A stretch of 64,000 bases of DNA from contig PQXD01000003.1 in NCBI GenBank assembly GCA_003194485.1, positions 33,067 to 97,066 of the forward strand, read 5' to 3'. Shown in pieces: positions 7,525 through 58,290 of the stretch. The translations under genes were made by a program, and so were the position numbers. The stretch comes from Deltaproteobacteria bacterium. GTDB taxonomy: Bacteria > Desulfobacterota > Dissulfuribacteria > Dissulfuribacterales > UBA3076. Positions within the stretch are counted from its first letter, which is position 1, and each line of letters opens with the position of its first letter. The notes beneath the pieces are model-generated. The model made no database searches and was not told the DNA's origin. It was given only the letters and a program-made list of their open reading frames with translations.

Positions 7525-7608
7525 TTGAAACTTGAAATTAGAAATTAGAACGAAACAAAAGCATGAAGGCCAAATTTCCAATTTCTATTTTCCAATTTCC
7601 AATCTCAA
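7525..7608. repeat. hairpin element built from inverted heptamer arrays (GAAATTA/GGAAATT)
   Basis: The left arm is TTGAAACTTGAAATTAGAAATTAGAA and the right arm is AATTTCCAATTTCTATTTTCCAATTTCCAATCTCAA. The loop GAAACAAAAGCATGAAGGCC is shared with the element at 35010-35095. Confidence 0.8.
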
Positions 7609-18800: not shown

Positions 18801-19655
18801 CTAATCTTTCAGACTGACCAGGGCCTGACCGGGACCGTAGTCCAGTTCAACTTTAGCCACTTTTTTATATTTTCCTGAACTATAAAGTTGATACAGGACT
18901 TTTTCCGCCTTACTGAACTGAGAGTTGAGGTCTTCAGTATCAAAGTGAAAAGGAATACCGCTGTCAGCCGTATAGAGTATTAAGGTGTCTTTTCCGGCTA
19001 TGTGTATCTGGCTTATGTTATTGACACCCAGAGTTCTTGTACCTCTGCCTGCCATGGATATTAATTCCAGGGCCTTTTGGATCTGGTGATCTGGTGATTC
19101 GGTGATCTGGTGATTCTCTGTGTACTTCGGATCAATTCCTGTGATGATGGGAAGAGATACGGGCTCTTCCGCAGAAAGTAGTTCATCGATAATCTTACCC
19201 TGCTCATCAATCAAATAGATCTTGTCAGAATTCAATAGGGCTACCGGAGTGCGTTCTTTGATCGTGATCATCAAGTGGTCCGGCAGCTCTCTCTCAACTT
19301 CAACGGCATTGACCCAGGGATGCGCCTCTATGTTCGTTGCGATTGATTCCAGATCGAGAGACATGAGATTGTCCCGGGCGGTTACACCGCTGATCTGCAA
19401 AACCTCCTCTTCTGTGAGATGATTGCAGCCTTTCACCAGGACCTGGCCGACCCTGAAAAGTTCAGACCGACATACCCAATGCCAACACACAAAAAGGCCG
19501 GCAAGAACCAGGCATGCCGAGGCCATGGCGATCAACATTTTGGGATGGATAGACCACGATACCGGAAATATCAGACTGGTCCACGGGCCTGATCCATGCA
19601 TTGAAGACCTGAATTCTGTGGACGTCCTTCTGATCTTCATGTCTCCATACCCCAA
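18801..19655 (-). CDS. ftsQ: cell division protein FtsQ
   Basis: Single TM segment plus POTRA/FtsQ domains, positioned between murB and ftsA. It contains an in-frame octamer array (19081-19116). Confidence 0.8.
   Translation of the reverse strand: MGYGDMKIRRTSTEFRSSMHGSGPWTSLIFPVSWSIHPKMLIAMASACLVLAGLFVCWHWVCRSELFRVGQVLVKGCNHLTEEEVLQISGVTARDNLMSLDLESIATNIEAHPWVNAVEVERELPDHLMITIKERTPVALLNSDKIYLIDEQGKIIDELLSAEEPVSLPIITGIDPKYTENHQITESPDHQIQKALELISMAGRGTRTLGVNNISQIHIAGKDTLILYTADSGIPFHFDTEDLNSQFSKAEKVLYQLYSSGKYKKVAKVELDYGPGQALVSLKD
19081..19116. repeat. tandem octamer array (ATCTGGTG x4, one variant ATTCGGTG) inside ftsQ
   Basis: ATCTGGTGATCTGGTGATTCGGTGATCTGGTGATTC is read directly. It encodes ..NHQITESPDHQI.. 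Confidence 0.9.
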
Positions 19656-20542
19656 ACAGACACCTCCGGGACAAGTTTAATGCCAGTCTCTTTTTGTACG
19701 CGCTCCCTGATGATTTTTAGCAGATCCACTACCTGTAGAGCACTGGCTTTTCCGCAGTTCACAATAAAGTTTGCATGCCTTTTGGATATCTCGGCATCAC
19801 CGATTCTAAGACCCTTGAGTCCGCACCGGTCTATGAGCCTTCCTGCTGAATCTCCCGGGGGATTTCTGAAAATACACCCTGCACTCGGTTCTCCTGCAGG
19901 CTGGGTGGCCCTCCGTTTGAGCATCACCCTTTTGACACGGCGCCTGATCCGATCGGGATCGGCTTTGCAGAGTTGAATCCTTGCGGCAGAGATAAGGGCC
20001 CTGTCCGGAAGCCTTAAGGACCTGTAATCAAATTGCAGTCTATCTCTCCGGAGCCAGCAACTCCCATCAGGGCCTGTAAATTGTACAGCTTCTATTGCTT
20101 CTGACATGGAAAACTTGTTAGTGCCTGCGTTCATGGCTATGGCCCCCCCTATACTTGCCGGAATACCCGAAAGATTCTCAAGGCCGGACAGGCCGTTGCG
20201 TATGGACCAGGAAACAAAGGAATCCAGCCTGCATCCTGCCCCTACGGACACTGTTTTAAGGAAATGGCCACGGGGGGAGGAATGGATACTGTTCAAAGCT
20301 GCAAGGCTCATGACTATCTTCACGCCTTTATCGCTGATCAACAGGTTGCTTCCCCGGCCCAGCACCTTATAGGGTATGGAGCGATTACTGAGGTAAGAAA
20401 TAGTCTGCTCAAGGGCCTTCAAACTGCCCGGAACCAGGAACAGATGCGCGGGCCCGCCTATCCGGAAGCTTGTAAGTGGTAAAAGAGGAACATCCTCACG
20501 TACCTGGAGATCTCTTATTTTTTTCAGATCCTCAGAAAGCAA
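19637..20542 (-). CDS. murB: UDP-N-acetylenolpyruvoylglucosamine reductase
   Basis: FAD-binding MurB pattern (LTSFRIGGPA, GRGSNLL) in dcw synteny. Confidence 0.9.
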   Translation of the reverse strand: MLSEDLKKIRDLQVREDVPLLPLTSFRIGGPAHLFLVPGSLKALEQTISYLSNRSIPYKVLGRGSNLLISDKGVKIVMSLAALNSIHSSPRGHFLKTVSVGAGCRLDSFVSWSIRNGLSGLENLSGIPASIGGAIAMNAGTNKFSMSEAIEAVQFTGPDGSCWLRRDRLQFDYRSLRLPDRALISAARIQLCKADPDRIRRRVKRVMLKRRATQPAGEPSAGCIFRNPPGDSAGRLIDRCGLKGLRIGDAEISKRHANFIVNCGKASALQVVDLLKIIRERVQKETGIKLVPEVSVWGMET

Positions 20543-21926
20543 TCGCTGGCTCCTTTGTCTTAAGCATGTCCAGAATTTTCGTTCCTATACGGCCTATAGT
20601 GCCGGCACCGAGTGTTATGACCACGTCATCCTCCTGGAGACTTGATATAATTGCCCCGGGAAGGTCCCCGCAGGACTCCACATAATGCACCTGCCTGCCC
20701 TGTTTATCCCTGATATTTCTGGCCAGACGTCTTCCACTGACTCCGACTATGGGGGTTTCGCCGGCTGGATAGATCTCTGTCAGCCACAGTTCATCAGCCT
20801 CCCCAAAGGCCGTGGTGAAATCGTCCATTAACATCCGGGTCCTGCTGTACCGGTGGGGTTCAAAAAGAACCACGAACCGGCGTTCAGGCCAACATGTCCT
20901 GGCAGCCGCGAGTGTGGCCAGTATCTCAGTAGGGTGGTGCGCATAATCATCCACTATTGTTATCCCTTCTGCCTCACCCAGTATCTCAAATCGTCTGCCT
21001 ACACCTTCATATGACATGAGACCGGTCCGGATCTTGTGAAAGGGTATCTCAAGTTCAAGGCCCAGGGCCATTGCAGCCAGGGAATTTCTTACATGGTGCA
21101 GCCCCGGGACCTTGAGTTGTATCCTGCCGAGTTCGGCGTTCTGCCACCAGGCCCTGAAGGATGCTCCCAGGCCTTCGAAGTGTATGTCTCTGGCCTGCAG
21201 ATCAGACTCGGGTCCTGTCCCGTAAGTCATTACCCGTTTTTTTACTGCCGGGAGCATCTCTCTGAGGCGGGGGTCATCTCCGCAGAGTATGGCAAGGCCA
21301 TAGAAAGGGATTTTGTCTATGAAGTCCAGAAAACACCGGATTATGGCATTCATGTCTGCATAATAGTCCAGGTGCTCTCTGTCTATATTGGTTACCACGG
21401 CTATGCTTGGCGTAAGGCGCAGGAAACTCCCGTCACTCTCATCGGCTTCTGCTATCAGGAACTCGCCCTGTCCCCAACAGGCATTGCTTCCAATACCATT
21501 CACCTTTCCCCCTATGATGACCGTCGGATCAAGGCCGGCTGCGCGAAGCACAGAAGAGATCATAGAGGTCGTGCTGGTCTTTCCGTGAGCACCGGCCACT
21601 GCTATGCCGAACTTCTTGAGCCGCATCAATTCCGCAAGCATTTCAGCCCTCGGTATGACAGGAATTTGAGAGGAATAGGCCTCCTGGACTTCGGGGTTGC
21701 TTTCCCTGACGGCAGAAGAAATCACCACTACATCGGCTCCCTGAATATTTTCAGGGGCATGACCCTTATAGATTATGCCCCCCAGCTTATTGAGACACCT
21801 GGTGATTTCAGTCTCACATAAATCAGAACCTGTGATTGTATATCCAAGATTGAGAAGGACCCTTGCAAGTCCGCTCATGCCTATTCCGCCGATTCCCACA
21901 AAATGAATATGCTGTTTTTTATACAT
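20532..21926 (-). CDS. murC: UDP-N-acetylmuramate--L-alanine ligase
   Basis: IHFVGIGGIGMSGLA and the P-loop GAHGKTSTT. Confidence 0.93.
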   Translation of the reverse strand: MYKKQHIHFVGIGGIGMSGLARVLLNLGYTITGSDLCETEITRCLNKLGGIIYKGHAPENIQGADVVVISSAVRESNPEVQEAYSSQIPVIPRAEMLAELMRLKKFGIAVAGAHGKTSTTSMISSVLRAAGLDPTVIIGGKVNGIGSNACWGQGEFLIAEADESDGSFLRLTPSIAVVTNIDREHLDYYADMNAIIRCFLDFIDKIPFYGLAILCGDDPRLREMLPAVKKRVMTYGTGPESDLQARDIHFEGLGASFRAWWQNAELGRIQLKVPGLHHVRNSLAAMALGLELEIPFHKIRTGLMSYEGVGRRFEILGEAEGITIVDDYAHHPTEILATLAAARTCWPERRFVVLFEPHRYSRTRMLMDDFTTAFGEADELWLTEIYPAGETPIVGVSGRRLARNIRDKQGRQVHYVESCGDLPGAIISSLQEDDVVITLGAGTIGRIGTKILDMLKTKEPAIAF

Positions 21927-23115
21927 GACTATGCAGTGTAGAATCTTTCAATGAATTATTCCCTGCTTCAGAACATGAAAGACTATGGCAGGCCATCTTT
22001 ATCAGCGTGGCGGCTATTTCTGCGGCTGCCATGGGTCTTCCGAGTTTTCGAGCATTTTTCCCCATATTAGCGAGTTTTTCAGGATCCTCAAGCAAGGACT
22101 GTATCTCTCCTGCCAGTTTGACAGCACCTATTTCTCCCTCCCGGAAATATTTTGCAGCCCCGGCCACAGACAGTTCTCTGGCATTGGCCTCTTGATGCAT
22201 ATCTGTTGCCGATGGATAGGGAATCAGTATAGAGGGCCTTCCAAGGGCTGTGACCTCGGCCAGCGTACCTGCACCGGCCCGGCAGATAACCAGATCCGCC
22301 CAGGAATAGGATTCACCAATATCGGATATAAATGGAGTCACTCTGGCCGGAATGTCTGCGTCCTTGTAAAATTTCTCAATATCCGGCACATCCAGCTTAC
22401 CGGTTTGGTGGATAATTTCCACATGAAAACCGGATTGCCACAAGACCTGAATGGCCGAACAGACAAGCCGGTTCAGGCATCTGGCACCCTGACTTCCCCC
22501 CAGCACCAGGAGCCTGGAATCTGGTGATCTGGTGATCTGGTGATCTGGTGATTGAATAATGTCTTTCCGTATGGGATTTCCGGTGAAAATTACCCTGTTT
22601 TTTGGAAAGTATCTGGCAGTTTCCTTGAAGCTCACAAACACGGTCTTTGCAAATCTTGAGGCCAGACGGTTCGTGAGCCCGGGGATGAGATTCTGTTCAT
22701 GGATGGCAACGGATACCCGCAATATTCTTGCTGCAAGCAGCACGGGCCCGGAGACATATCCCCCTACACCCAATACCACATGAGGCCTGAATGATTTAAG
22801 CCACAAAAAGGCCCTGGCAGCGGAGGAGGGAAGCCCGGCCAGAGAGCATATGGTTCCTGCAAGGCCTGAGCCCCTGAGAGGTCTTGTACTCAGGATGCGA
22901 TAATCCCATTGACGCCCTGAGAGTGCATCTTTTTCCACCGGACGGCCCGTGCCTATCCACAAGACATCCACATGACCGTATATTTCCATGGCTTCAGCCA
23001 CGGCTATTCCCGGAAACACATGTCCTCCCGTACCACCACCGGCTACGACCAATTTGGTGGTTTGGTGATCCGGGTTGCGGATTACGGATTGCGGATTGCG
23101 GATTGCGATGTCCAT
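21919..23115 (-). CDS. murG: undecaprenyldiphospho-muramoylpentapeptide beta-N-acetylglucosaminyltransferase MurG
   Basis: VVAGGGTGGHVFPG and GGSQGA motifs. The ATG lies 4 nt after the murD stop. The gene carries two in-frame repeat arrays. Confidence 0.9.
   Translation of the reverse strand: MDIAIRNPQSVIRNPDHQTTKLVVAGGGTGGHVFPGIAVAEAMEIYGHVDVLWIGTGRPVEKDALSGRQWDYRILSTRPLRGSGLAGTICSLAGLPSSAARAFLWLKSFRPHVVLGVGGYVSGPVLLAARILRVSVAIHEQNLIPGLTNRLASRFAKTVFVSFKETARYFPKNRVIFTGNPIRKDIIQSPDHQITRSPDSRLLVLGGSQGARCLNRLVCSAIQVLWQSGFHVEIIHQTGKLDVPDIEKFYKDADIPARVTPFISDIGESYSWADLVICRAGAGTLAEVTALGRPSILIPYPSATDMHQEANARELSVAGAAKYFREGEIGAVKLAGEIQSLLEDPEKLANMGKNARKLGRPMAAAEIAATLIKMACHSLSCSEAGNNSLKDSTLHSHV
22519..22553. 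repeat. tandem octamer array (ATCTGGTG x4) inside murG
   Basis: The unit is the same as in ftsQ. It encodes IIQSPDHQITRSPDS at the inter-domain linker just before LVLGGSQGA. Confidence 0.9.
23072..23106. repeat. tandem heptamer array (GGATTGC-type x5) at the murG 5' end
   Basis: GGGTTGC GGATTAC GGATTGC GGATTGC GGATTGC encodes IAIRNPQSVIRNP immediately after the ATG. Confidence 0.9.
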
Positions 23116-25647: not shown

Positions 25648-28600
25648 CTATCCTCCTCCCAGATGCCTGATAAGGGCATCTGCTGCCTTCTCAAGGCCTA
25701 CGGCCCGTGATCCCTTTACGAGTATAATTGCCGGGGAAGGCATGCAATCAAGAGCGTCTGATTCTATCCATGAAAGCAAATCCTCCGTGTCGGGGAAGAT
25801 GCGGATAGCCTCTTGCGAAATACCCGCCTTTTTTGCAGCCCCGGAAACAGTATCAGCAAACCGGCCTGCTGAAACTAAAAGATCAACCCCTGTTTGGGCT
25901 GCAAGCCGTCCGAGATCCTGATGAAACTTGCGAGCGGCATTGCCGAGTTCCAGCATGTCTCCCAGGATCGCTATCTTTTTCTCGCCCCTGCTCCAGAATT
26001 CGAGGGTCTCAAGGGCCGCTCTCGCAGAACCGGGATTTGCATTATAAGAATCGTCTATCAGCCTCCATCCGGATCCAAGATTCTTCAGAAACAGACGGCC
26101 CGGAACCGGTTTCACTTCCTCAAGCCCCTGCTTTATACTGACCGGCTTCAGCCCCACTGCATGGCCTGCAGCCGCGGCTGCAACGGCATTCTGCACGTTC
26201 GCCTTACCTATGAGGGAAAGATCGACAGAGAGCCTGCTTCCCGCGATATCCAGGTCCAGCAGAGTGCCATGCTCGACCGGGGTCCAGGACAGGCAAGTGA
26301 TTGCAGCTTTGAGCTTTGAGCTTTGAGCTTTGAGTTGGGGATTGGGTGTCAGAGAATAACCCACTATCCGGCACGTCAGATCTTTTGCCCCTTCAGTAAC
26401 CAGTGGGTCGTCAAGGTTCATCACTGCCACACCCGTCCGGGGAAGGGCTCTCCAGAGTCCCCATTTTTCTTCGGCCACTTCTTTTATGCCCCCCAGGCCG
26501 ACAAGATGGGCAGGCTGTATGGTAGTAATAAGGCCCGCTTGCGGCTGAGCGATTTCGCACAGCCGGGATATCTCTCCGGGCCGGTTCGTTCCCATCTCCA
26601 GCATTACCCAGGAGTCATCGGTTTTGGCCGAAAGCAGGCTGAGGGGAAGTCCGATAAGGTTGTTGAAATTCCCCGGGGTCTTAGCCACTTTCCATTTCTT
26701 CCCCAGGATCGAGGAAATCAGTTCTTTTGTTGTGGTCTTGCCGCAACTACCTGTAATGCCGATCACCTTGATTCCGAGGTATTCCCTGTACCATGATGCG
26801 AAGTCTCCCAGGCTCTTCAAGGTATCCTGAACTTTCAACAGGACCGGACGGGATCGAGGGCTGAAAGCCGAAAGTCCAGGGTCAGGAATCGAACTGACTA
26901 CGGCACCAACGGCGCCTTTTCTTATGGCTTCGAGGACAAAGTCATGGCCGTTGAAGCGGTCCCCTGGAAGCGCCCAGAATATATTCCCTGTTCTCACCGA
27001 TCTGGAATCTGTTGATACGCCATGGATTGATATGTCAGGATCACCCGAAAGGACTCGGGCTCCAATGGCCTTTGCCACCTGGGAGGCCTTTAATCGAAAT
27101 CCCTGATCCTCAAGAACCTCTACTTTTGACTCTTGTCTTTTATTCCCTGAACCCTGAACCCTGAACCCTGAACCCTGAACCCTGCCTTTTGACCCAAAGG
27201 CCTCTTTCAATACCTCTCTATCGTCAAAGGCAAATCGCCCGCTGCCGATTATCTGGCATGTTTCGTGGCCCTTCCCTGCCACCAGCAGGCAGGCGCCGGG
27301 GCGCGCTCTTTCCGCCGCCCATGATATGGCGTCCCTCCTGTCCGGAATTACCTTCACTTTTGCTCTGTTTGCAGGATGATGAGGCGGAAGGTCCCTGAGG
27401 CCGTTCAACATCTGCTCGAGTATGGCAAGAGGGTCTTCAGTGCGGGGATTGTCAGAGGTCAGCACAACAATATCCGCGAGTGAAGCCGCTGCCTGCGCCA
27501 TAAGAGGACGCTTACTCCGGTCCCTGTCCCCACCGCAGCCGACTACGCAAATCACGGGCCTGAATCCTAATGTAACAAGGCTGTTCAGGACACATTCAAG
27601 GGCATCAGGTGTGTGAGCATAATCTACAAAAGCAGTCACTCCATTGGGAGTGCACACAGGATCGAGTCTCCCCGGAATGCGCGTCACTGATTCTATACCG
27701 GCCTGAATATGGTCCGTATCTATCCCGAGGGCGATTGAAGCCGCTACTGCTGCAAGGATGTTATAGAGATTATAGGAACCCGTAAGCCTGGATCTGAAAG
27801 AAACAGGCCCTCTGGGCGTGACAAGCCTGCCTGTTATTCCATCAATATTGATGGACTGCGACTCAGGCCTCACCTCGGCCTCAGGACTGAGACCATAACT
27901 GATCTTTTCTTTTTGCAGAATCTCCCACAGTCGCCTTCCATGGAGGTCATCAATATTAATAATTGCCGCACCAGAGGGATGCTCCAAAAACAGTTTTGCC
28001 TTAGCCCGGAAATATCGTTCCATGTCTTGGTGATAATCCAGGTGATCGCGGCCCAGATTGGTAAAGACAGATGCGGCGAAACTGCACCCGGAGATCCTTC
28101 GCTGGTCAATGGCATGAGAAGATACCTCCAAGGCCGCCGCTTTTACTCCTTGTTCCAGCATATCTGCCAGAATCTTTTGCAGTCTTACGGCATCCGGGGT
28201 GGTGAGTTCGGAAGGTACCTCCACACCTCCATGTCTCCTGTTTATAGTCCCTATTACACCAGGGTTCAGTCCGGCTTTGCTGAAGATTCCTTCCATGAGA
28301 TATGTGATCGTGGTCTTACCATTAGTGCCCGTAACGGCTACGAGGTCCATTTTTTCACTGGGGTTTCCATAAAAGGCACTTGCCAGGAGGCCGGTTGAGA
28401 GCCTGGGATCGTCAACCCCTATAACAGGAAGTGTTCCAGGTACGGATTCGATATAATAACGTCGGGCGTCCTGGCCCGGCACTAACAGGACAGCGGCTCC
28501 TTTCTCTACGGCATCACTGATAAATTGTCTTCCGTCAAATTCAGTGCCTGGAATTGCCGCGAATACGTATCCCTGCTTCACCTGCCTGGAGTCTGCGGAT

Positions 28601-28725
28601 ATGCCCGTGATTTTTACGTCATCAAGGTCCGATGGAGAAAAAACGGTGGGCCTAACAGGTCTGAGCACTCCCAACATATCCCGTAATGCCCTTTCGTTCT
28701 GCATGTTATTAGACATCACTTGCAC
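25648..28725 (-). CDS. murE-murF: fused MurE (meso-DAP-adding ligase) and MurF (D-Ala-D-Ala-adding ligase), 1025 aa
   Basis: Two complete Mur-ligase modules with P-loops VAVTGTNGKTT (N-terminal half) and ITGSCGKTTT (C-terminal half). They are joined by the linker GRVQGSGFRVQGSGNKRQESKVEVLEDQG. Confidence 0.9.
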   Translation of the reverse strand: MQVMSNNMQNERALRDMLGVLRPVRPTVFSPSDLDDVKITGISADSRQVKQGYVFAAIPGTEFDGRQFISDAVEKGAAVLLVPGQDARRYYIESVPGTLPVIGVDDPRLSTGLLASAFYGNPSEKMDLVAVTGTNGKTTITYLMEGIFSKAGLNPGVIGTINRRHGGVEVPSELTTPDAVRLQKILADMLEQGVKAAALEVSSHAIDQRRISGCSFAASVFTNLGRDHLDYHQDMERYFRAKAKLFLEHPSGAAIINIDDLHGRRLWEILQKEKISYGLSPEAEVRPESQSINIDGITGRLVTPRGPVSFRSRLTGSYNLYNILAAVAASIALGIDTDHIQAGIESVTRIPGRLDPVCTPNGVTAFVDYAHTPDALECVLNSLVTLGFRPVICVVGCGGDRDRSKRPLMAQAAASLADIVVLTSDNPRTEDPLAILEQMLNGLRDLPPHHPANRAKVKVIPDRRDAISWAAERARPGACLLVAGKGHETCQIIGSGRFAFDDREVLKEAFGSKGRVQGSGFRVQGSGNKRQESKVEVLEDQGFRLKASQVAKAIGARVLSGDPDISIHGVSTDSRSVRTGNIFWALPGDRFNGHDFVLEAIRKGAVGAVVSSIPDPGLSAFSPRSRPVLLKVQDTLKSLGDFASWYREYLGIKVIGITGSCGKTTTKELISSILGKKWKVAKTPGNFNNLIGLPLSLLSAKTDDSWVMLEMGTNRPGEISRLCEIAQPQAGLITTIQPAHLVGLGGIKEVAEEKWGLWRALPRTGVAVMNLDDPLVTEGAKDLTCRIVGYSLTPNPQLKAQSSKLKAAITCLSWTPVEHGTLLDLDIAGSRLSVDLSLIGKANVQNAVAAAAAGHAVGLKPVSIKQGLEEVKPVPGRLFLKNLGSGWRLIDDSYNANPGSARAALETLEFWSRGEKKIAILGDMLELGNAARKFHQDLGRLAAQTGVDLLVSAGRFADTVSGAAKKAGISQEAIRIFPDTEDLLSWIESDALDCMPSPAIILVKGSRAVGLEKAADALIRHLGGG
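26305..26339. repeat. tandem heptamer array (AGCTTTG x4 plus one degenerate unit) inside the MurF module
   Basis: AGCTTTGAGCTTTGAGCTTTGAGCTTTGAGTTGGG encodes PQLKAQSSKLKAA. Confidence 0.9.
27145..27184. repeat. tandem heptamer array (CCCTGAA x5.5) forming the murE-murF junction
   Basis: CCCTGAACCCTGAACCCTGAACCCTGAACCCTGAACCCTG encodes RVQGSGFRVQGSG on the minus strand. The same heptamer occurs intergenically at 50373-50397. Confidence 0.9.
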
Positions 28726-38843: not shown

Positions 38844-40685
38844 TTGCAGGATGGTCTCCGGACACTGAAAGTACTCCAAGAAAAGAAAGGCCAAAAAGTG
38901 CCTGATATTCGGGAAATCACCTGGGTGTCAGAGACGGGTTCTACCAATGACCTTGCCAGAGAGAATTTTCAAAAAAGAGGGATTCTGTGGCGCTGTTTTG
39001 TTGCCGGCTCCCAGACCAGGGGCAGGGGTAGGAAAGGCCGGAACTGGATTTCTCCTCCCGGCACCGGCCTGTATCTGTCGATTGCTGTGCCAAGGCCCGG
39101 AATTCTGGAGGCCTGGCTCCCTCTAACCTGCGCCATTGCCTCATCGGCCGCCATACAATCCATTCTCACCAGGTCCCGCTGTGCCAGGCCGCCTTCTATT
39201 AAAATAAAATGGCCCAACGACCTGTATATTGAAAATGGAAAGTTGGCAGGTATGCTTTGCGAACTGGCAGACGGATCCGAAAGTCCTGCCTGGATAATCG
39301 GAATAGGCATAAACATTTGCACTCCGAAAAATGCCTTCCCGGAACATCTCAGGGAAAAGGCGTGTTCCATATCAAGCGCTACGGGTTGCCGGGTCTCCCG
39401 AGACTCCCTGCTTGAAGAACTGCTCGTTCATCTCTCTTTCTGGCTGGGAAAGATATATGAAGGCAATGTCTCGGCTATTTTGAATTTTATTGAAAAAACA
39501 GAAATAATGGGCATAATTCAGGGATCAGAAACCGGGCGGATCTCCAGCCACAGGCCCGCACAGCCTGACACAGGCGACCAGATCGCTGAATCAAGGATAA
39601 TACCGCAGATGCAGACAGATATCCGCAGGCTACAATCGTCAAATCGTCAAATCGTCAAATCGTCAAATCGTCAAATCGTCAAATCGTCAAATCCGCTGGG
39701 TATCACCATGGGCTGTCCGGCGGGAATCGGTCCTGAAATCATTATAAAGGCATTCGCTGCCAATCCTGAATGGCTGCTTTCACCTCCGGCAGTGGTCATA
39801 GGGGACATGAATATACTTAAAAAGGCATCAAGGGCGCTTGATATCGACATTCCCCTTAAGTCCTGGGTGCCTGGAGATCCCATTTCCGGCAGTGCGATAC
39901 ATGTGATTACACGGACAGACCTTAATGCCGAGGATATCCTTTGGGGAAAGCCGAACCCAGTCACTGGAAAGGCCTCTTTCGAGTATGTCACTGAGGGCAT
40001 CAGACTCTGCCTGGGAAAAAGTCTCTCCGGCCTTGTGACCGGCCCTATCAGTAAACTGGGCCTCAGGCTTGCCGGCATCTCCTACCCCGGACATACCGAG
40101 ATATTGGCCGACAGGACCAACACGGAAAGATATGCAATGATGCTGGCAGGCGACAGGCTCAGGGTAGCCCTTGTGACCATACACTGCCCCTTGAGGGAGG
40201 TGGCGGACAGCATCAGCACGGAAAAGATTTTTCAAGTAATTTTCCTTACGGATTCCTTCTTAAGAAATGAACTCGGCATAAAAGAGCCGGAGATTGCCGT
40301 GGCCGCACTGAATCCACATGGAGGCGAGTCCGGGATGTTTGGCAAAGAAGAAGAGCATATCATATCGCCCGCTATAGAAATGGCCCGGGGAAAGGGTATA
40401 GCGGCCAATGGGCCTTATCCTCCTGACACAGTGTTTTATCAGGCTGTCAATGGGAAATTCGACGCTGTAGTCTGCCAGTATCATGACCAGGGGCTGATTC
40501 CCTTTAAGCTCATTCATTTCAGAGACGGGGTCAACCTGACCTTAGGCCTTCCGATAACCAGGACTTCAGTAGATCACGGGACTGCATATGACATCGCCGG
40601 TACCGGAAAGGCGGATTGTGCCAGTCTTGAGGCGGCAATCAGACTCGCATCGAAGATAGTGGAAAAGAGAAAAGAAGGTCCATAA
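38844..40685 (+). CDS. birA-pdxA: fused biotin--protein ligase-like (BirA catalytic domain) and 4-hydroxythreonine-4-phosphate dehydrogenase (PdxA), 613 aa
   Basis: The N-terminal part has VSETGSTNDLA...AGSQTRGRGRKGRNWISPPGTGLYLS (BPL motifs). From ITMGCPAGIGPEII to the end is a complete PdxA. The junction reads QSSNRQIVKSSNRQIVKSSNP. Confidence 0.8.
   Translation: MQDGLRTLKVLQEKKGQKVPDIREITWVSETGSTNDLARENFQKRGILWRCFVAGSQTRGRGRKGRNWISPPGTGLYLSIAVPRPGILEAWLPLTCAIASSAAIQSILTRSRCARPPSIKIKWPNDLYIENGKLAGMLCELADGSESPAWIIGIGINICTPKNAFPEHLREKACSISSATGCRVSRDSLLEELLVHLSFWLGKIYEGNVSAILNFIEKTEIMGIIQGSETGRISSHRPAQPDTGDQIAESRIIPQMQTDIRRLQSSNRQIVKSSNRQIVKSSNPLGITMGCPAGIGPEIIIKAFAANPEWLLSPPAVVIGDMNILKKASRALDIDIPLKSWVPGDPISGSAIHVITRTDLNAEDILWGKPNPVTGKASFEYVTEGIRLCLGKSLSGLVTGPISKLGLRLAGISYPGHTEILADRTNTERYAMMLAGDRLRVALVTIHCPLREVADSISTEKIFQVIFLTDSFLRNELGIKEPEIAVAALNPHGGESGMFGKEEEHIISPAIEMARGKGIAANGPYPPDTVFYQAVNGKFDAVVCQYHDQGLIPFKLIHFRDGVNLTLGLPITRTSVDHGTAYDIAGTGKADCASLEAAIRLASKIVEKRKEGP
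39633..39694. repeat. tandem octamer array (CAAATCGT x6 plus partial units) at the birA-pdxA junction
   Basis: CAATCGT(CAAATCGT)x6 CAAATCC is read directly. Three units equal 24 nt and give the 8-aa peptide period SSNRQIVK. Confidence 0.95.
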
Positions 40686-41472: not shown

Positions 41473-41548
41473 TGGCGGTCCCAAGGGGAATCGAACCCCT
41501 GTTTCTGGCGTGAGAGGCCAGCGTCCTAGACCCCTAGACGATGGGACC
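41473..41548 (-). tRNA. tRNA-Glu (anticodon CUC), CCA encoded
   Basis: The minus strand reads GGTCCCATCGTCTAGGGGTCTAGGACGCTGGCCTCTCACGCCAGAAACAGGGGTTCGATTCCCCTTGGGACCGCCA. The acceptor stem is GGTCCCA/TGGGACC, the anticodon loop is CUCUCAC, and the T-arm is GGGGTTCGATTCCCC. Confidence 0.9.
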
Positions 41549-49725: not shown

Positions 49726-50197
49726 GTTGCGTCTCTCTTTAATCTGGATTGATAAGACCAGGGATGCCTGGCTCAAGGCCGGCATCGAGCATTATATAGA
49801 AAAGATCGAGCATTACATTCGTGTGCAGGTCCTCCAGGTCCGGGGTGTAGGCTTTGCCCGGAATATGAGGCCTGACGAGGTCATGAAGCGCGAGGCCAAA
49901 TCCATTACAAAGGTCCTGCCAAAAGGGGGTTTTACAGTCGCTCTGGACGTAAAGGGCCGGATGTTGGATTCCCCCGGACTCGCAGAGTTGCTGACAGATC
50001 TGGAGGCAAGAGGGATTAAAGACATGGCCATGGTGATAGGCGGGGCTTCGGGGCTTGCACCGGAAATAATCAAGAGGGCGGATGAGAGCTTGTCTCTCTC
50101 CCCGATGACCTTTACACACGACATGGCAAGACTAATCCTGGTTGAGCAGATCTACAGGGCCTGCACCATCAATGCCGGCGAGCCCTATCACCATTGA
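49724..50197 (+). CDS. rlmH: 23S rRNA (pseudouridine1915-N3)-methyltransferase RlmH
   Basis: SPOUT-family RlmH pattern (IWIDKTRDAWLKAGIEHY..., VIGGASGLAPEI, SLSPMTFTH). Confidence 0.88.
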   Translation: MLRLSLIWIDKTRDAWLKAGIEHYIEKIEHYIRVQVLQVRGVGFARNMRPDEVMKREAKSITKVLPKGGFTVALDVKGRMLDSPGLAELLTDLEARGIKDMAMVIGGASGLAPEIIKRADESLSLSPMTFTHDMARLILVEQIYRACTINAGEPYHH

Positions 50198-50231
50198 AAG
50201 ATGAACGTCCAAATTGAAAGATGAACGTCCA

Positions 50232-50369
50232 ACATCGAACATCGAACGTCCAACATCGAATGAAAAACAAACATCCAATACCGAACACACAACAGCTATT
50301 TCCGTTTCTTCATCTTTTCCCATTCAAAATTCGATGTTGGACGTTCGATGTTCGATGTCCATTTTTTTT
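50232..50369 (+). terminator. long hairpin plus T8 downstream of rlmH
   Basis: ACATCGAACATCGAACGTCCAACATCGAAT (50232-50261) is the exact reverse complement of 50329-50358. A run of eight T follows at 50362-50369. Confidence 0.5.
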
Positions 50370-53031: not shown

Positions 53032-54381
53032 TTAGAACATTATGTGACACATAACGAGCGCCATCAGAATTCCTGTCATATCTGCAAGCAGGGCAGCCGC
53101 TACTGCATGCCGGGTCCGAACCACACCGACGGCACCGAAATATACTGCCAGGACATAGAAAGTGGTTTCCGTGGAGCCCTGCATTGTGGAGACCAAAAAG
53201 GATGAGAAGCTGTCCGGGGCATGGCTCACTATCTCACTCATGATTCCAAACGCCCCGGAGCCGGAAAGGGGCCGCATAAGGGCCATGGGAAGGGCGTCTG
53301 CCGGCATGCCGATCATTGATGTGAGCGGTTGGAACGCTGATACCATAAGGTCAAAAGCACCCGAGGCCCGAAACATCCCGATGGCAACCATGATCATCAC
53401 AAGAAACGGGATAATCTTTACTGCTACCTGAAATCCTTCCTTTGCACCTGTGGTAGCGGCTTCGTAGACCCTGACACCCCGAAAATAACCAAACAGGAGA
53501 AGGCTGCACATAATTACAGGGACCAGCCAGTAGGAGAGGATCTCTCCTGCCAGGTCCCGCCAATCAGTGCCGGCAGTTAGACGAAATACGGCTCCGCCTG
53601 CAAAGGCAAGGACGGTCAGTATGACCGCCCACCTGCCGATCCATCCGGGCGGGTTAAGTTCTCCATCGGCTTCTTTTTCTCCATTGCAGACCGCAACAGG
53701 GTCCTGTTCCGTATCACCGGGATCTTTGCTTACTGTTTCTATGGGTGTTTTGTGTCTGCTGAAACGAACAAAGGCCTTTGAGGCAATAATGGCCATTGTG
53801 GTAGAGCAGATCGTTGCAACAAGCGAAGGAATAAGAATGGAAGCCGGCTCTGCGGCACCGGCGGCCGCCCGCACTCCGATTACGCCCAACGGGAGGATCG
53901 TGACGCTCGACGTATTAATCGCCAAAAAAAGACACATCGCATTGGTAGCCTCACCCTTGTTCGGATTCAGCCGGTCTAATTCCATCATCGCCTTGATTCC
54001 CATTGGCGTGGCTGCATTGCCGAGTCCCAGGGCATTGGCGGACATATTCATAATCATGGCCGACATGGCCGGATGCTCGGCAGGCACATCAGGAAACAGA
54101 CGGCACATGACAGGACGGATGGCACGGGCGATCAGACGCATCAAGCCACCGGCTTCAGCGACTTTCATAAGACCAAGCCACAGTGCCATAACCCCGATCA
54201 AGCCAATCGCCAGGTTAACGGAATTTTTTGCGGATTCGAACGAAGCATCGACCAGTTGCTTCATTCTGCCGTTGTAGGAGGCGACCACTGTAGCCAGGAG
54301 AATCATAAAAAGCCATATCAGATTAATTGCTGCCGGACGTTTTTCCAATGGCTCAATTACCCATAGCCAGGCCGCACTCAA
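53032..54381 (-). CDS. nucleoside-recognition (Gate) domain membrane protein, SpmA/SpmB-like fusion
   Basis: Polytopic protein with two Gate-like halves separated by an acidic hydrophilic linker (TVSKDPGDTEQDPVAVCNGEKEADGE). Confidence 0.6.
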   Translation of the reverse strand: MSAAWLWVIEPLEKRPAAINLIWLFMILLATVVASYNGRMKQLVDASFESAKNSVNLAIGLIGVMALWLGLMKVAEAGGLMRLIARAIRPVMCRLFPDVPAEHPAMSAMIMNMSANALGLGNAATPMGIKAMMELDRLNPNKGEATNAMCLFLAINTSSVTILPLGVIGVRAAAGAAEPASILIPSLVATICSTTMAIIASKAFVRFSRHKTPIETVSKDPGDTEQDPVAVCNGEKEADGELNPPGWIGRWAVILTVLAFAGGAVFRLTAGTDWRDLAGEILSYWLVPVIMCSLLLFGYFRGVRVYEAATTGAKEGFQVAVKIIPFLVMIMVAIGMFRASGAFDLMVSAFQPLTSMIGMPADALPMALMRPLSGSGAFGIMSEIVSHAPDSFSSFLVSTMQGSTETTFYVLAVYFGAVGVVRTRHAVAAALLADMTGILMALVMCHIMF

Positions 54382-55568
54382 GGACCCTGAATGAGATCCA
54401 TGGCGAGGTCTGCCGCCCTCTCTGCCGCCCCTGGTTTACCCAGGGCATTTTTTACCTCTTTCAGATCCCTGATCATATTCTCCATTGCGGCTTTGTCCCC
54501 GAAAAGAGACAGTACCTCATGAGAGAGCCGCCCGGCACTGACATCCCCCTGGAGTATCTCGGGTACTACCCGGCGTCCTGCCACCAGGTTTACAAGGGAC
54601 ACAAAAGGGACTTTTACGAGACATCTTCCCAGAAAATATGTAACAGGGGACACCATGTAGGTGACCACCATGGGAGTGCCCAGAATAGCGGCCTCAAGGG
54701 TGACTGTCCCTGAGGCCGCAAGTATCAGGTCGGAAGCGGCTATGGCATCATAGGTCTGGCCCCTCACCATTCGAATAATCGGGTGGTCGGGTGATCCATC
54801 CGTCTGTGTTCGTCTGTGCTGGTCCGTGGTCACTGACTCGGTAACCTGATAAATAAATGGTTCCAGAGTTCCGGGATCAAGCGATGGTGCAAGCGGTAGC
54901 ACAAACTGGACATCCCGCCCGTCTTTAAGCATCCTCCGGGCAGCACCTGCCATCACGGGAAATAACCTCGAGACCTCGCTCTTTCGACTGCCAGGGACGA
55001 GTCCTATTACCGGCCTTTCCGGATTGAGTCCCGCCTTTTTGCAAAACTCGCTTCTGGAGACCCGGGCCTTGACCACGTCAAGAAGGGGATGGCCTACAAA
55101 TCTCGCTTTCATGCCGTGAGACCTGAAAAAGGCCTCCTCAAACGGCAAAATGACAGCCATTCGATCTGTCAGACGGCGAAGCTTTTTCAATCTGCCCTTA
55201 CGCCAGGCCCATACCTGGGGACTTATATAGTAAAAAACGGGAATACCCAGCTTCTTTGCCTTGGCGGCCACCTGGAGGTTAAACTCCGGATAATCTATAA
55301 GAATGAGTAAATCCGGTCTCTCTTTGCGCAGCCAGTCTGTAGTACGGCCAAAGGCCCTTAAAATCGGCCCAATATGACCGGCGACCTCGACCACACCAAC
55401 CACCGCAAGCTCAGAGCTTGAAAAAAGAAGCTCCAGCCCTGCCTCCTCCATTTTCGGGCCACCTATGCCTACAAATCTTGCCTGTGGAAGCCTGGTCTTA
55501 AGGGCACGGATGAGGTTTGAACCATGAAGGTCGCCAGAGGGCTCCCCGGCTATGATAAATACCTGCAC
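54378..55568 (-). CDS. lpxB: lipid-A-disaccharide synthase
   Basis: IIAGEPSGDLHGSNLI N-terminus in lpx synteny. The start is GTG at 55568. It contains an in-frame decamer repeat insert. Confidence 0.9.
   Translation of the reverse strand: MQVFIIAGEPSGDLHGSNLIRALKTRLPQARFVGIGGPKMEEAGLELLFSSSELAVVGVVEVAGHIGPILRAFGRTTDWLRKERPDLLILIDYPEFNLQVAAKAKKLGIPVFYYISPQVWAWRKGRLKKLRRLTDRMAVILPFEEAFFRSHGMKARFVGHPLLDVVKARVSRSEFCKKAGLNPERPVIGLVPGSRKSEVSRLFPVMAGAARRMLKDGRDVQFVLPLAPSLDPGTLEPFIYQVTESVTTDQHRRTQTDGSPDHPIIRMVRGQTYDAIAASDLILAASGTVTLEAAILGTPMVVTYMVSPVTYFLGRCLVKVPFVSLVNLVAGRRVVPEILQGDVSAGRLSHEVLSLFGDKAAMENMIRDLKEVKNALGKPGAAERAADLAMDLIQGP
54801..54830. repeat. tandem decamer (CGTCTGTGTT-type x3) inside lpxB
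   Basis: CGTCTGTGTT CGTCTGTGCT GGTCCGTGGT encodes part of TTDQHRRTQTDGSPDHPI. Confidence 0.8.
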
Positions 55569-58204: not shown

Positions 58205-58290
58205 GAAACTGGAAATTAGAAATTAGAAATTAGGTAATGAATCTACATCTTTGTGTTTTCCCCAATTTCCAATTTCCAGTTTCCAGTTTC
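58205..58290. repeat. heptamer-array hairpin element (lpxA-fabZ spacer)
   Basis: GAAACTGGAAATTAGAAATTAGAAATTAGG pairs with CCCCAATTTCCAATTTCCAGTTTCCAGTTTC. Confidence 0.8.

Follow-up and report, generated by a model that had tools for sequence, protein, structure and literature searches.

In-frame arrays of a TCACCARA octamer in ftsQ and murG of a probable SEEP-SRB2-type bacterium

How can a tandem repeat with an eight-nucleotide unit lie in frame within essential genes, and why do those genes have a peptide in common? These questions are raised by a 64,000-nucleotide stretch of a Deltaproteobacteria genome (assembly GCA_003194485.1, contig PQXD01000003.1, positions 33,067 to 97,066 of the forward strand), referred to below as the window. 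Within it, arrays of an octamer of the general form TCACCARA are found in ftsQ and murG, and decayed copies occur at the start of murG and in lpxB. To our knowledge, repeats with non-triplet units are generally considered compatible with essential coding sequence only where they act as on/off switches. Our comparisons suggest that the TCACCARA arrays are, in all likelihood, a dispersed, slippage-driven family of 8-nt repeats that selection has filtered to loops, linkers and termini.

The octamer arrays and their common peptide

The arrays in these three genes and the genes that host them are as follows.

18801-19655, minus strand: ftsQ, with Pfam domains POTRA_1 (residues 67-135) and FtsQ_DivIB_C (residues 143-261).
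19080-19116, minus strand: octamer array in ftsQ, about 4.4 units, coding strand AATCACCAG ATCACCGA ATCACCAG ATCACCAG ATC, encoding NHQITESPDHQI (FtsQ residues 181-192).
21919-23115, minus strand: murG, with Pfam domains Glyco_transf_28 and Glyco_tran_28_C; N domain residues 23-160, C domain residues 202-362.
22519-22552, minus strand: perfect octamer array in the inter-domain linker of murG, 4.25 units of TCACCAGA, encoding SPDHQITRSPD (MurG residues 189-199).
23049-23068, minus strand: decayed octamer copy in the N-terminal extension of MurG, predicted to be disordered; TCACCAAACCACCAAATTGG, peptide DHQTTK, 4 mismatches in 20.
23071-23107, minus strand: heptamer array at the MurG N-terminus, about 5 units of CAATCCG on the coding strand, encoding IRNPQSVIRNP.
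54378-55568, minus strand: lpxB.
54778-54794, minus strand: decayed octamer remnant within a lineage-specific LpxB insert; TCACCCGACCACCCGAT, peptide SPDHP.

On the plus strand, murG carries four perfect ATCTGGTG units at 22519-22550, where Tandem Repeats Finder (TRF) delimits 22519-22552 as 4.2 copies with 100% match. The corresponding units at 19081-19112 in ftsQ are ATCTGGTG, ATCTGGTG, ATTCGGTG and ATCTGGTG (TRF 19080-19114, 4.4 copies, 85% match). The exact octamer ATCTGGTG occurs seven times in the window, every copy within one of these two arrays, and a two-unit 16-mer with at most two mismatches has 6 matches compared with 0.03 expected from shuffles. Each array is embedded in an uninterrupted long minus-strand open reading frame (ORF) identified by Pfam and in conceptual translation reads ...ENHQITESPDHQIQK... 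at FtsQ residues 181-192 and ...QSPDHQITRSPDS... at MurG residues 189-199. The original prediction, made from the sequence alone, that the same octamer array lies in frame in both genes and encodes these peptides is thus upheld. The surrounding division and cell wall (dcw) cluster has the order mraZ...ftsI-murEF-mraY-murD-murG-murC-murB-ftsQ-ftsA-ftsZ. At the lpxB remnant, the translated peptide is GSPDHPII.

The common peptide is accounted for by the arithmetic of the unit. Three coding-strand units of TCACCAGA make 24 nt, TCA CCA GAT CAC CAG ATC ACC AGA, which read SPDHQITR; three octamers equal eight codons, and the cyclic peptide of sense-strand arrays is SP(D/N)HQIT(R/K). Because 8 and 3 share no common factor, an array of at least three units is read in all phases, and the same cyclic octapeptide results from any entry frame. 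Any two genes with the sense octamer will thus have this peptide in common, without any need for selection on it. The complement, TCTGGTGA, contains TGA, and every opposite frame is closed within three units, so that only the sense orientation survives inside genes. It is the DNA, in perfect 8-nt units, that defines the element, and the peptide has no synonymous-codon signature. The peptide common to FtsQ, MurG and LpxB is a by-product of the DNA repeat.

For structural analysis of the array sites, AlphaFold models were built with alignments (mean predicted local distance difference test score, pLDDT, of 87 for MurG and 82.5 for FtsQ). In the MurG model, helix 184-187 is followed by a coil that includes residues 189-199 and leads into the first C-domain strand (200-205); pLDDT falls to 67 in this coil, and residues 1-19 are predicted to be disordered. 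The FtsQ array, residues 181-192, is modeled as a short irregular segment and the first turns of helix 186-202, within the C-terminal domain, and the block containing residues 181-190 has a pLDDT of 71. Both arrays had been expected at inter-domain linkers. The placement is correct for MurG, but in FtsQ the inter-domain linker comprises about residues 135-143, apart from the array, which is predicted to form an intra-domain loop and helix cap. The accompanying suggestion that such repeats are tolerated in surface loops agrees with the models, in which the arrays fall in low-confidence coil or in the disordered N-terminus. Folding of the RNA around both arrays, on both strands, revealed no significant structure (sense z = -1.1 and -0.9; antisense z = -1.8 and -1.9).

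Orthologous sites and array turnover in relatives

We compared the window with related sequences, all of which are metagenome-assembled genomes (MAGs) or metagenome contigs, using simple ORF-based gene calls in the fetched loci. The nearest sequences are labelled Deltaproteobacteria or Dissulfuribacterales. They include 'E20SeepSRB2' (PQXE01), with 82-88% nucleotide identity to the window, and the JGI contig L001, which differs at 75 positions over 12,987 aligned columns (about 99.4% identity). MurG of cultured Dissulfuribacter-type relatives is only about 50-55% identical. By sequence similarity, the window appears to derive from an uncultured sulfate-reducing lineage of the SEEP-SRB2 type (Dissulfuribacterales). 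One contig deposited as archaeal (L036; JAIWFS01, 'archaeon isolate JL_RS_05_5') has a bacterial dcw cluster 84% identical to the window and is probably mis-binned SEEP-SRB2 DNA. A second contig of the same MAG, L084, contains an in-frame array and flanking peptide as in the MAG contigs L064 and L079, the protein being HPPK by Pfam in L064.

The MurG linker reads QSPNHQITKSPN or a near variant, i.e., it is built of the unit TCACCAAA, in all relatives at 72-98% identity, several of which have extra blocks of 8 or 16 residues. Relatives at or below 61% identity have a linker of unrelated sequence and equal length. Taking the sites together, relatives at 72-99% identity have the octamer array in matching positions. 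In MurG, the array adds no net length compared with solved (PDB) MurG structures and outgroup orthologs and therefore occupies a pre-existing variable linker; a net insertion in MurG is ruled out. At the N-terminus of MurG, relatives carry a perfect copy, ...ITKSPNHQITK-LVVAGGGTGGH, where the window has the decayed DHQTTK preceded by the CAATCCG heptamers. This region must be translated, because the first β-strand, KLVVAGGG, needs an upstream start and M1 is the sole ATG upstream.

FtsQ of clade members comes in two lengths, which differ by exactly 8 residues (NHQITKSP; 24 nt). In LpxB, three relatives (L130, L133 and L134) have perfect TCACCAAA arrays at the site of the window remnant. Relatives also show 8-residue length differences, and the stretch between two arrays is deleted in L133 and L134, whereas in outgroups (34-47% identity) the whole insert of about 20-40 residues is absent. 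Thus, the tracts noticed earlier at the MurG N-terminus and in LpxB are indeed decayed copies of the arrays. Comparison with orthologs supports a lineage-specific insert in LpxB, but not in MurG, and the distant orthologs do not contain the same residues. The octamer copies in ftsQ, murG and lpxB have no flanks in common, and the inserts consist purely of tandem octamers. On these alignments, the arrays are not recent insertions but are ancient within the clade, and they evolve in concert.

TCACCARA shares this genome with several other repeat families of 7- and 8-nt units. Perfect window repeats of at least three copies have period 7 in five cases and period 8 in two, with about none expected from Markov simulations, and repeats at other periods are at chance level. 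Five of these seven arrays sit within ORFs. The period spectrum peaks likewise at 7 and 8 in 274 kb of related loci and in 674 kb of other array-bearing loci, and genomes of the host lineage are generally rich in such arrays. Three further arrays of the window lie in coding frames.

26305-26334, minus strand: heptamer array in a loop of the MurF part of the MurE-MurF ORF, 4.3 units of CTCAAAG on the coding strand, peptide QLKAQSSKLKA.
27145-27184, minus strand: heptamer array forming the MurE-MurF linker, 5.7 units of AGGGTTC on the coding strand, peptide RVQGSGFRVQGSG.
39634-39693, plus strand: another octamer array, between the biotin-ligase-like and PdxA parts of an ORF, 7.5 units of AATCGTCA, peptide SSNRQIVKSSNRQIVKSSN.

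A single ORF of about 1,000 residues (25648-28725, minus strand) encodes both MurE and MurF in the window, and the two are likewise joined in all relatives examined. At 38844-40685 (plus strand), a biotin-ligase-like domain (BPL_LplA_LipB) and PdxA are joined by the AATCGTCA array in a single 613-residue frame with no stop, an apparent gene fusion made by a microsatellite. Similar junctions are found in relatives: in L080 (PQXE01000041) and L112 (JAYEMY010000317), TCACCAAA arrays bridge an Mpl-type ligase with Tgt and RsmI with KdsB in one open frame, the junction pattern being as in the window.

Length differences between close relatives are 24 nt (ftsQ and lpxB), 21 nt (heptamers) and, in murG of one contig considered below, 16 nt. 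A single large indel separates the window from L001: the MurE-MurF linker array of L001 is shorter by 21 nt, which is exactly three heptamers. Several relatives differ from the window by the same three-unit step in the heptamer array at the MurG N-terminus. Of the 75 substitutions that separate the window from L001, 5 lie within the 69 nt of the two murG arrays, with a sixth (22518) one base outside. All MurG units have the AGA form in the window and the AAA form in L002; in L001 the two forms alternate.

Within clusters of at least 90% identity, the MurG linker has at least six alleles, and FtsQ alleles include NHQITESPDHQI, NHRITGSPDHRI and intermediates; judging from its residues rather than its DNA, NHRITGSPDHRI would be a re-homogenised array of four ATCACCGG units. 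Seven of the 13 variable residues in MurG fall within its 30 array residues (odds ratio 18, p = 9e-6), as do 5 of the 12 in FtsQ within its 12 array residues (odds ratio 27, p = 4e-5). In both proteins, no other region is as variable as the arrays. Adenine mutagenesis of the kind produced by diversity-generating retroelements was considered as the source of variation at A positions and rejected: judged on the substitution pattern alone, only ordinary transitions (A<->G, C<->T) are present.

The same sites can be occupied by different units in different lineages. The MurE-MurF linker contains related but differently homogenised heptamers (AGGGTTC, AAGGGAC/AAGGTTC, GGAGTTC or AAGGTTG/AAGGTAG), and one MurF loop contains CTCAAAG in the window, TTCAAAA in L002 and five units of the octamer AAATCACC in L005 and L036. 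The choice of unit variant follows base composition: the window species (50-51% G+C) has TCACCAGA, whereas relatives at 47-48% G+C have TCACCAAA, and across all phyla, AGA-variant loci average 63% G+C compared with 51% for AAA among the matches listed. Peptide alleles suggest that the window species also uses TCACCGGA. Each unit of the AGA variant contains one GATC site.

Several heptamer arrays of the window are intergenic. At 7534-7603 and 58212-58290, (GAAATTA)n is followed after 20-30 nt by (CCAATTT)n, nearly its reverse complement, and these pairs are possibly hairpins built of heptamer arrays at gene ends; GAAATTA also occurs as an array by itself at 1780-1799. CATCGAA/CGTCCAA units at 50192-50260 are followed about 70 nt later, at 50330-50358, by their reverse complement TTCGATG/TTGGACG, together making a long imperfect inverted repeat of heptamers. 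In L055, 89% identical to the window, the intergenic regions are too diverged for copy-number comparison and contain entirely different arrays, including at 50192-50358. A search of the whole window with Rfam at gathering thresholds returned a single tRNA gene (41476-41548, minus strand) and no match at the arrays.

Dispersal of the octamer and competing explanations

To place the arrays in a wider context, species-representative genomes were scanned for three units of TCACCARA, which yielded at least 120 loci (L006-L125), counted as raw matches to this unit alone. Among the matches listed, in-frame arrays of SEEP-SRB2-type MAGs lie in a ValRS-like class I tRNA synthetase (before the TTRPET motif), the editing domain of LeuRS, the N-terminus of DnaE, HPPK (FolK), GpsA, the head domain of a CCA/poly(A) polymerase, an Mpl-type ligase and its junction with Tgt, YhdP, a multihaem cytochrome and a radical SAM protein. 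Of the 24 SEEP-type arrays among these matches, 10 are internal to ORFs, many stand directly after a start codon, and none is without a sense ORF. In other Thermodesulfobacteriota MAGs, arrays occur at domain boundaries of PheT, ProRS and HrpA.

The octamer is also found, in arrays of at least three units, in Acidobacteriota, Bacteroidota, Planctomycetota, Nitrospirota, Cyanobacteriota, Gemmatimonadota and others among the matches listed, several genomes having many loci. The arrays listed for other phyla are mostly outside ORFs. Twelve of these 87 abut the ATG of an ORF of at least 100 codons in the sense orientation (-6 to +15 nt), compared with 7% of random positions and with 2 antisense cases; thyA-, purE- and aspartokinase-like starts are examples. 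Viral contigs gave only 2 matches to the three-unit pattern. Full-text literature searches for octamer dimers and the peptide, and for 'Seep-SRB2' together with 'tandem repeat', found no paper.

We consider it likely that these observations reflect a repeat family that is dispersed, driven by slippage and filtered by selection. The arrays gain and lose units and homogenise them, as replication slippage or unequal exchange between units would produce. In coding DNA, those observed are always in the sense orientation, change length in steps of three units (24 nt, or 21 nt for heptamers) and lie in coils, linkers, N-termini and gene junctions. The encoded peptides would be functionally neutral passengers, and the arrays would remain perfect across lineages diverged by about 15-18% through continual re-homogenising turnover, not through selection on the sequence. 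The initial proposal of a mini-satellite spreading into coding DNA is supported by the DNA-level units, the three-unit steps among close relatives and the presence of the octamer in other housekeeping proteins.

Several points weigh against a purely neutral, slippage-driven origin. Slippage, deduced from comparison of assemblies, does not by itself account for the seeding of one octamer at many unlinked sites, a 12-nt seed being expected less than once per genome. The occurrence of the octamer in many unrelated phyla hints at a sequence-specific process or at selection beyond the neutral model, and perfect arrays in lineages diverged by about 15-18% could reflect selection on the sequence itself. 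We therefore also consider the possibility, in our view rather unlikely, that TCACCARA is a cross-phylum, sequence-specific repeat comparable to the TAACTGA repeats discussed below, made or kept by an active process or by a selected role in transcripts, and that SEEP-SRB2 represents an invasion of coding sequence. The role might then be, for example, that of a G-free, structure-free leader, independent of a Shine-Dalgarno (SD) sequence, placed against start codons. Dozens of essential SEEP-SRB2 genes would have been given a common peptide, with an occasional fusion or split (MurE-MurF, BirA-like-PdxA and the split MurG described below).

A related explanation is that the G-poor, unstructured TCACCARA is a cis element of RNA or DNA, selected for a role in the transcript or chromosome, with the peptides as collateral. 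It might act as an SD-independent leader for translation, be bound by an RNA-binding protein, cause pausing in the long dcw operon or signal recombination. The sense arrays against ATG codons in other phyla, the SEEP-type arrays right after start codons and the recurrence of the unit in six named phyla fit such a role, for which there is a precedent in the translational function proposed for TAACTGA repeats upstream of start codons (MacGregor 2015, PMC4679880). The enrichment at start codons is, however, only about two-fold and involves small numbers, and the internal arrays of ftsQ, murG and lpxB are present, absent or decayed among close relatives. Moreover, the sense-only orientation within genes is already forced by the TGA on the complement, and neither the folding of the sense RNA nor the Rfam search points to an RNA element. 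We regard this explanation as improbable.

It is highly unlikely that the peptide itself was recruited, i.e., that SP(N/D)HQIT(K/R) is selected as a flexible linker, a localisation or interaction tag, or a modification site. The peptide does recur at linkers and termini of many proteins, and the common change of unit from AAA to AGA produces conservative N/D and K/R replacements. Nevertheless, identity is kept at the nucleotide level, without synonymous variation, as the arithmetic of the octamer would have it. Some FtsQ and LpxB orthologs of different strains have the 8-residue block and others do not, and the peptide decays freely, for example to SPDHPII or NKISGSQNHR. The host proteins differ in function and cellular location, and other 7- or 8-nt arrays with unrelated peptides fill the same loops in sister lineages. 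The original prediction had likewise ranked a peptide tag as the less likely reading.

Out-of-frame slippage could also be used to switch, split or fuse genes, which would make the arrays contingency or evolvability loci. One allele has the form that this idea calls for. In L151 (JGI 3300057013, contig Ga0568886_0028326, 5.6 kb; array region 2130-2260), murG is 95% identical to that of the window, and its only two indels are both in arrays: one of 21 nt, in frame, and one of 16 nt, or two octamers, which leaves two linker units instead of four. The resulting break falls exactly at the inter-domain linker and turns the gene into two overlapping ORFs, one of 201 residues for the N domain and an intact one of 195 residues for the C domain, which starts at GTG. 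The arrangement parallels that of eukaryotic Alg14 and Alg13, which correspond to separate N- and C-terminal parts of MurG and act as a heterodimer (PMC8993221). Gene junctions bridged by stop-free arrays are MurE-MurF and BirA-like-PdxA in the window and, among relatives, Mpl-Tgt and RsmI-KdsB. However, this single split allele on one short contig, which may represent true fission, a defective variant or a fault of assembly, stands against dozens of in-frame alleles in the assemblies, and on/off switching of essential genes would be lethal. We find a contingency function scarcely probable. Finally, short tandem repeats are prone to mis-assembly and all data are metagenomic, but an assembly or sequencing artefact is effectively refuted, as the arrays (about 35 nt) are shorter than a read, keep essential reading frames open and recur at orthologous positions in many independent JGI, ENA and NCBI assemblies.

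Relation to known repeats and significance

In the contingency loci of host-adapted pathogens, phase-variable simple repeats switch accessory surface genes on and off. The arrays described here resemble them in having non-triplet, slippage-prone units within ORFs, one related allele (that of L151) being frameshifted at the array. In contrast, their hosts are single-copy essential genes (ftsQ, murG, lpxB, dnaE and tRNA synthetase genes), and almost all alleles are in frame. The short tandemly repeated repetitive (STRR) heptamers of cyanobacteria are dispersed tandem families of about 7 nt located mainly in non-coding DNA; they too are lineage-typical and have no known function, but differ in unit, period and taxon. 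The octamer presumably also resembles the 3′ end of 16S rRNA (GAUCACC; its complement GGUGAUC is SD-like) and the core of E. coli Chi (CTGGTG), resemblances that we do not use as evidence.

With a head-to-tail 8-nt unit in 4.2-4.4 copies, longer than expected by chance, and a copy number that differs between close relatives, the TCACCARA arrays can be classed among prokaryotic long simple sequence repeats (LSSRs). As summarised in PMC4679880, the survey of Mrazek, Guo & Shah (2007) describes LSSR units of 5-11 nt, with heptamers as the commonest class, and places in genes mostly those units whose length is a multiple of three. Judged by that summary, the likeness lies in short-unit tandem arrays far beyond chance, a scattered phylogeny and presumed slippage, and the difference in 7- and 8-nt units that keep the frame within essential housekeeping genes and vary in steps of three. 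The TAACTGA heptamer repeats of marine Beggiatoaceae, some Cyanobacteria and Bacteroidetes are overwhelmingly intergenic (MacGregor 2015, PMC4679880). As with TCACCARA, one short unit occurs at many loci in several unrelated phyla, often just upstream of starts; its spread is unexplained, and stop codons in one orientation constrain array placement. The unit and period (TCACCARA, 8) are different here, and the SEEP-SRB2 arrays are largely intragenic and translated. Rickettsia palindromic elements (RPEs), which resemble miniature inverted-repeat transposable elements and are about 150 bp long, are found in frame in protein-coding genes (reviewed in PMC10969869). They share with the octamers the presence of repeated DNA in unrelated metabolic and housekeeping genes, read through in frame as a conserved, fold-compatible peptide. 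The octamers, however, are a tandem microsatellite without a palindrome, and RPEs show neither copy-number slippage nor homogenisation of units.

Thus, microsatellites of 7- and 8-nt units lie inside core genes, including those of DNA polymerase III alpha, tRNA synthetases, MurG, FtsQ and LpxB, where a rule of three-unit steps keeps the frame. The arrays provide a natural map of permissive insertion sites in essential proteins and a clean system for measuring slippage and homogenisation under frame constraint. They explain odd low-complexity peptides, apparent fusion ORFs and broken genes in the annotation of SEEP-SRB2 and other MAGs, and can serve as hypervariable strain markers. For the proteins themselves, the arrays suggest an origin of linkers, N-terminal extensions and gene fusions, and perhaps of fissions.

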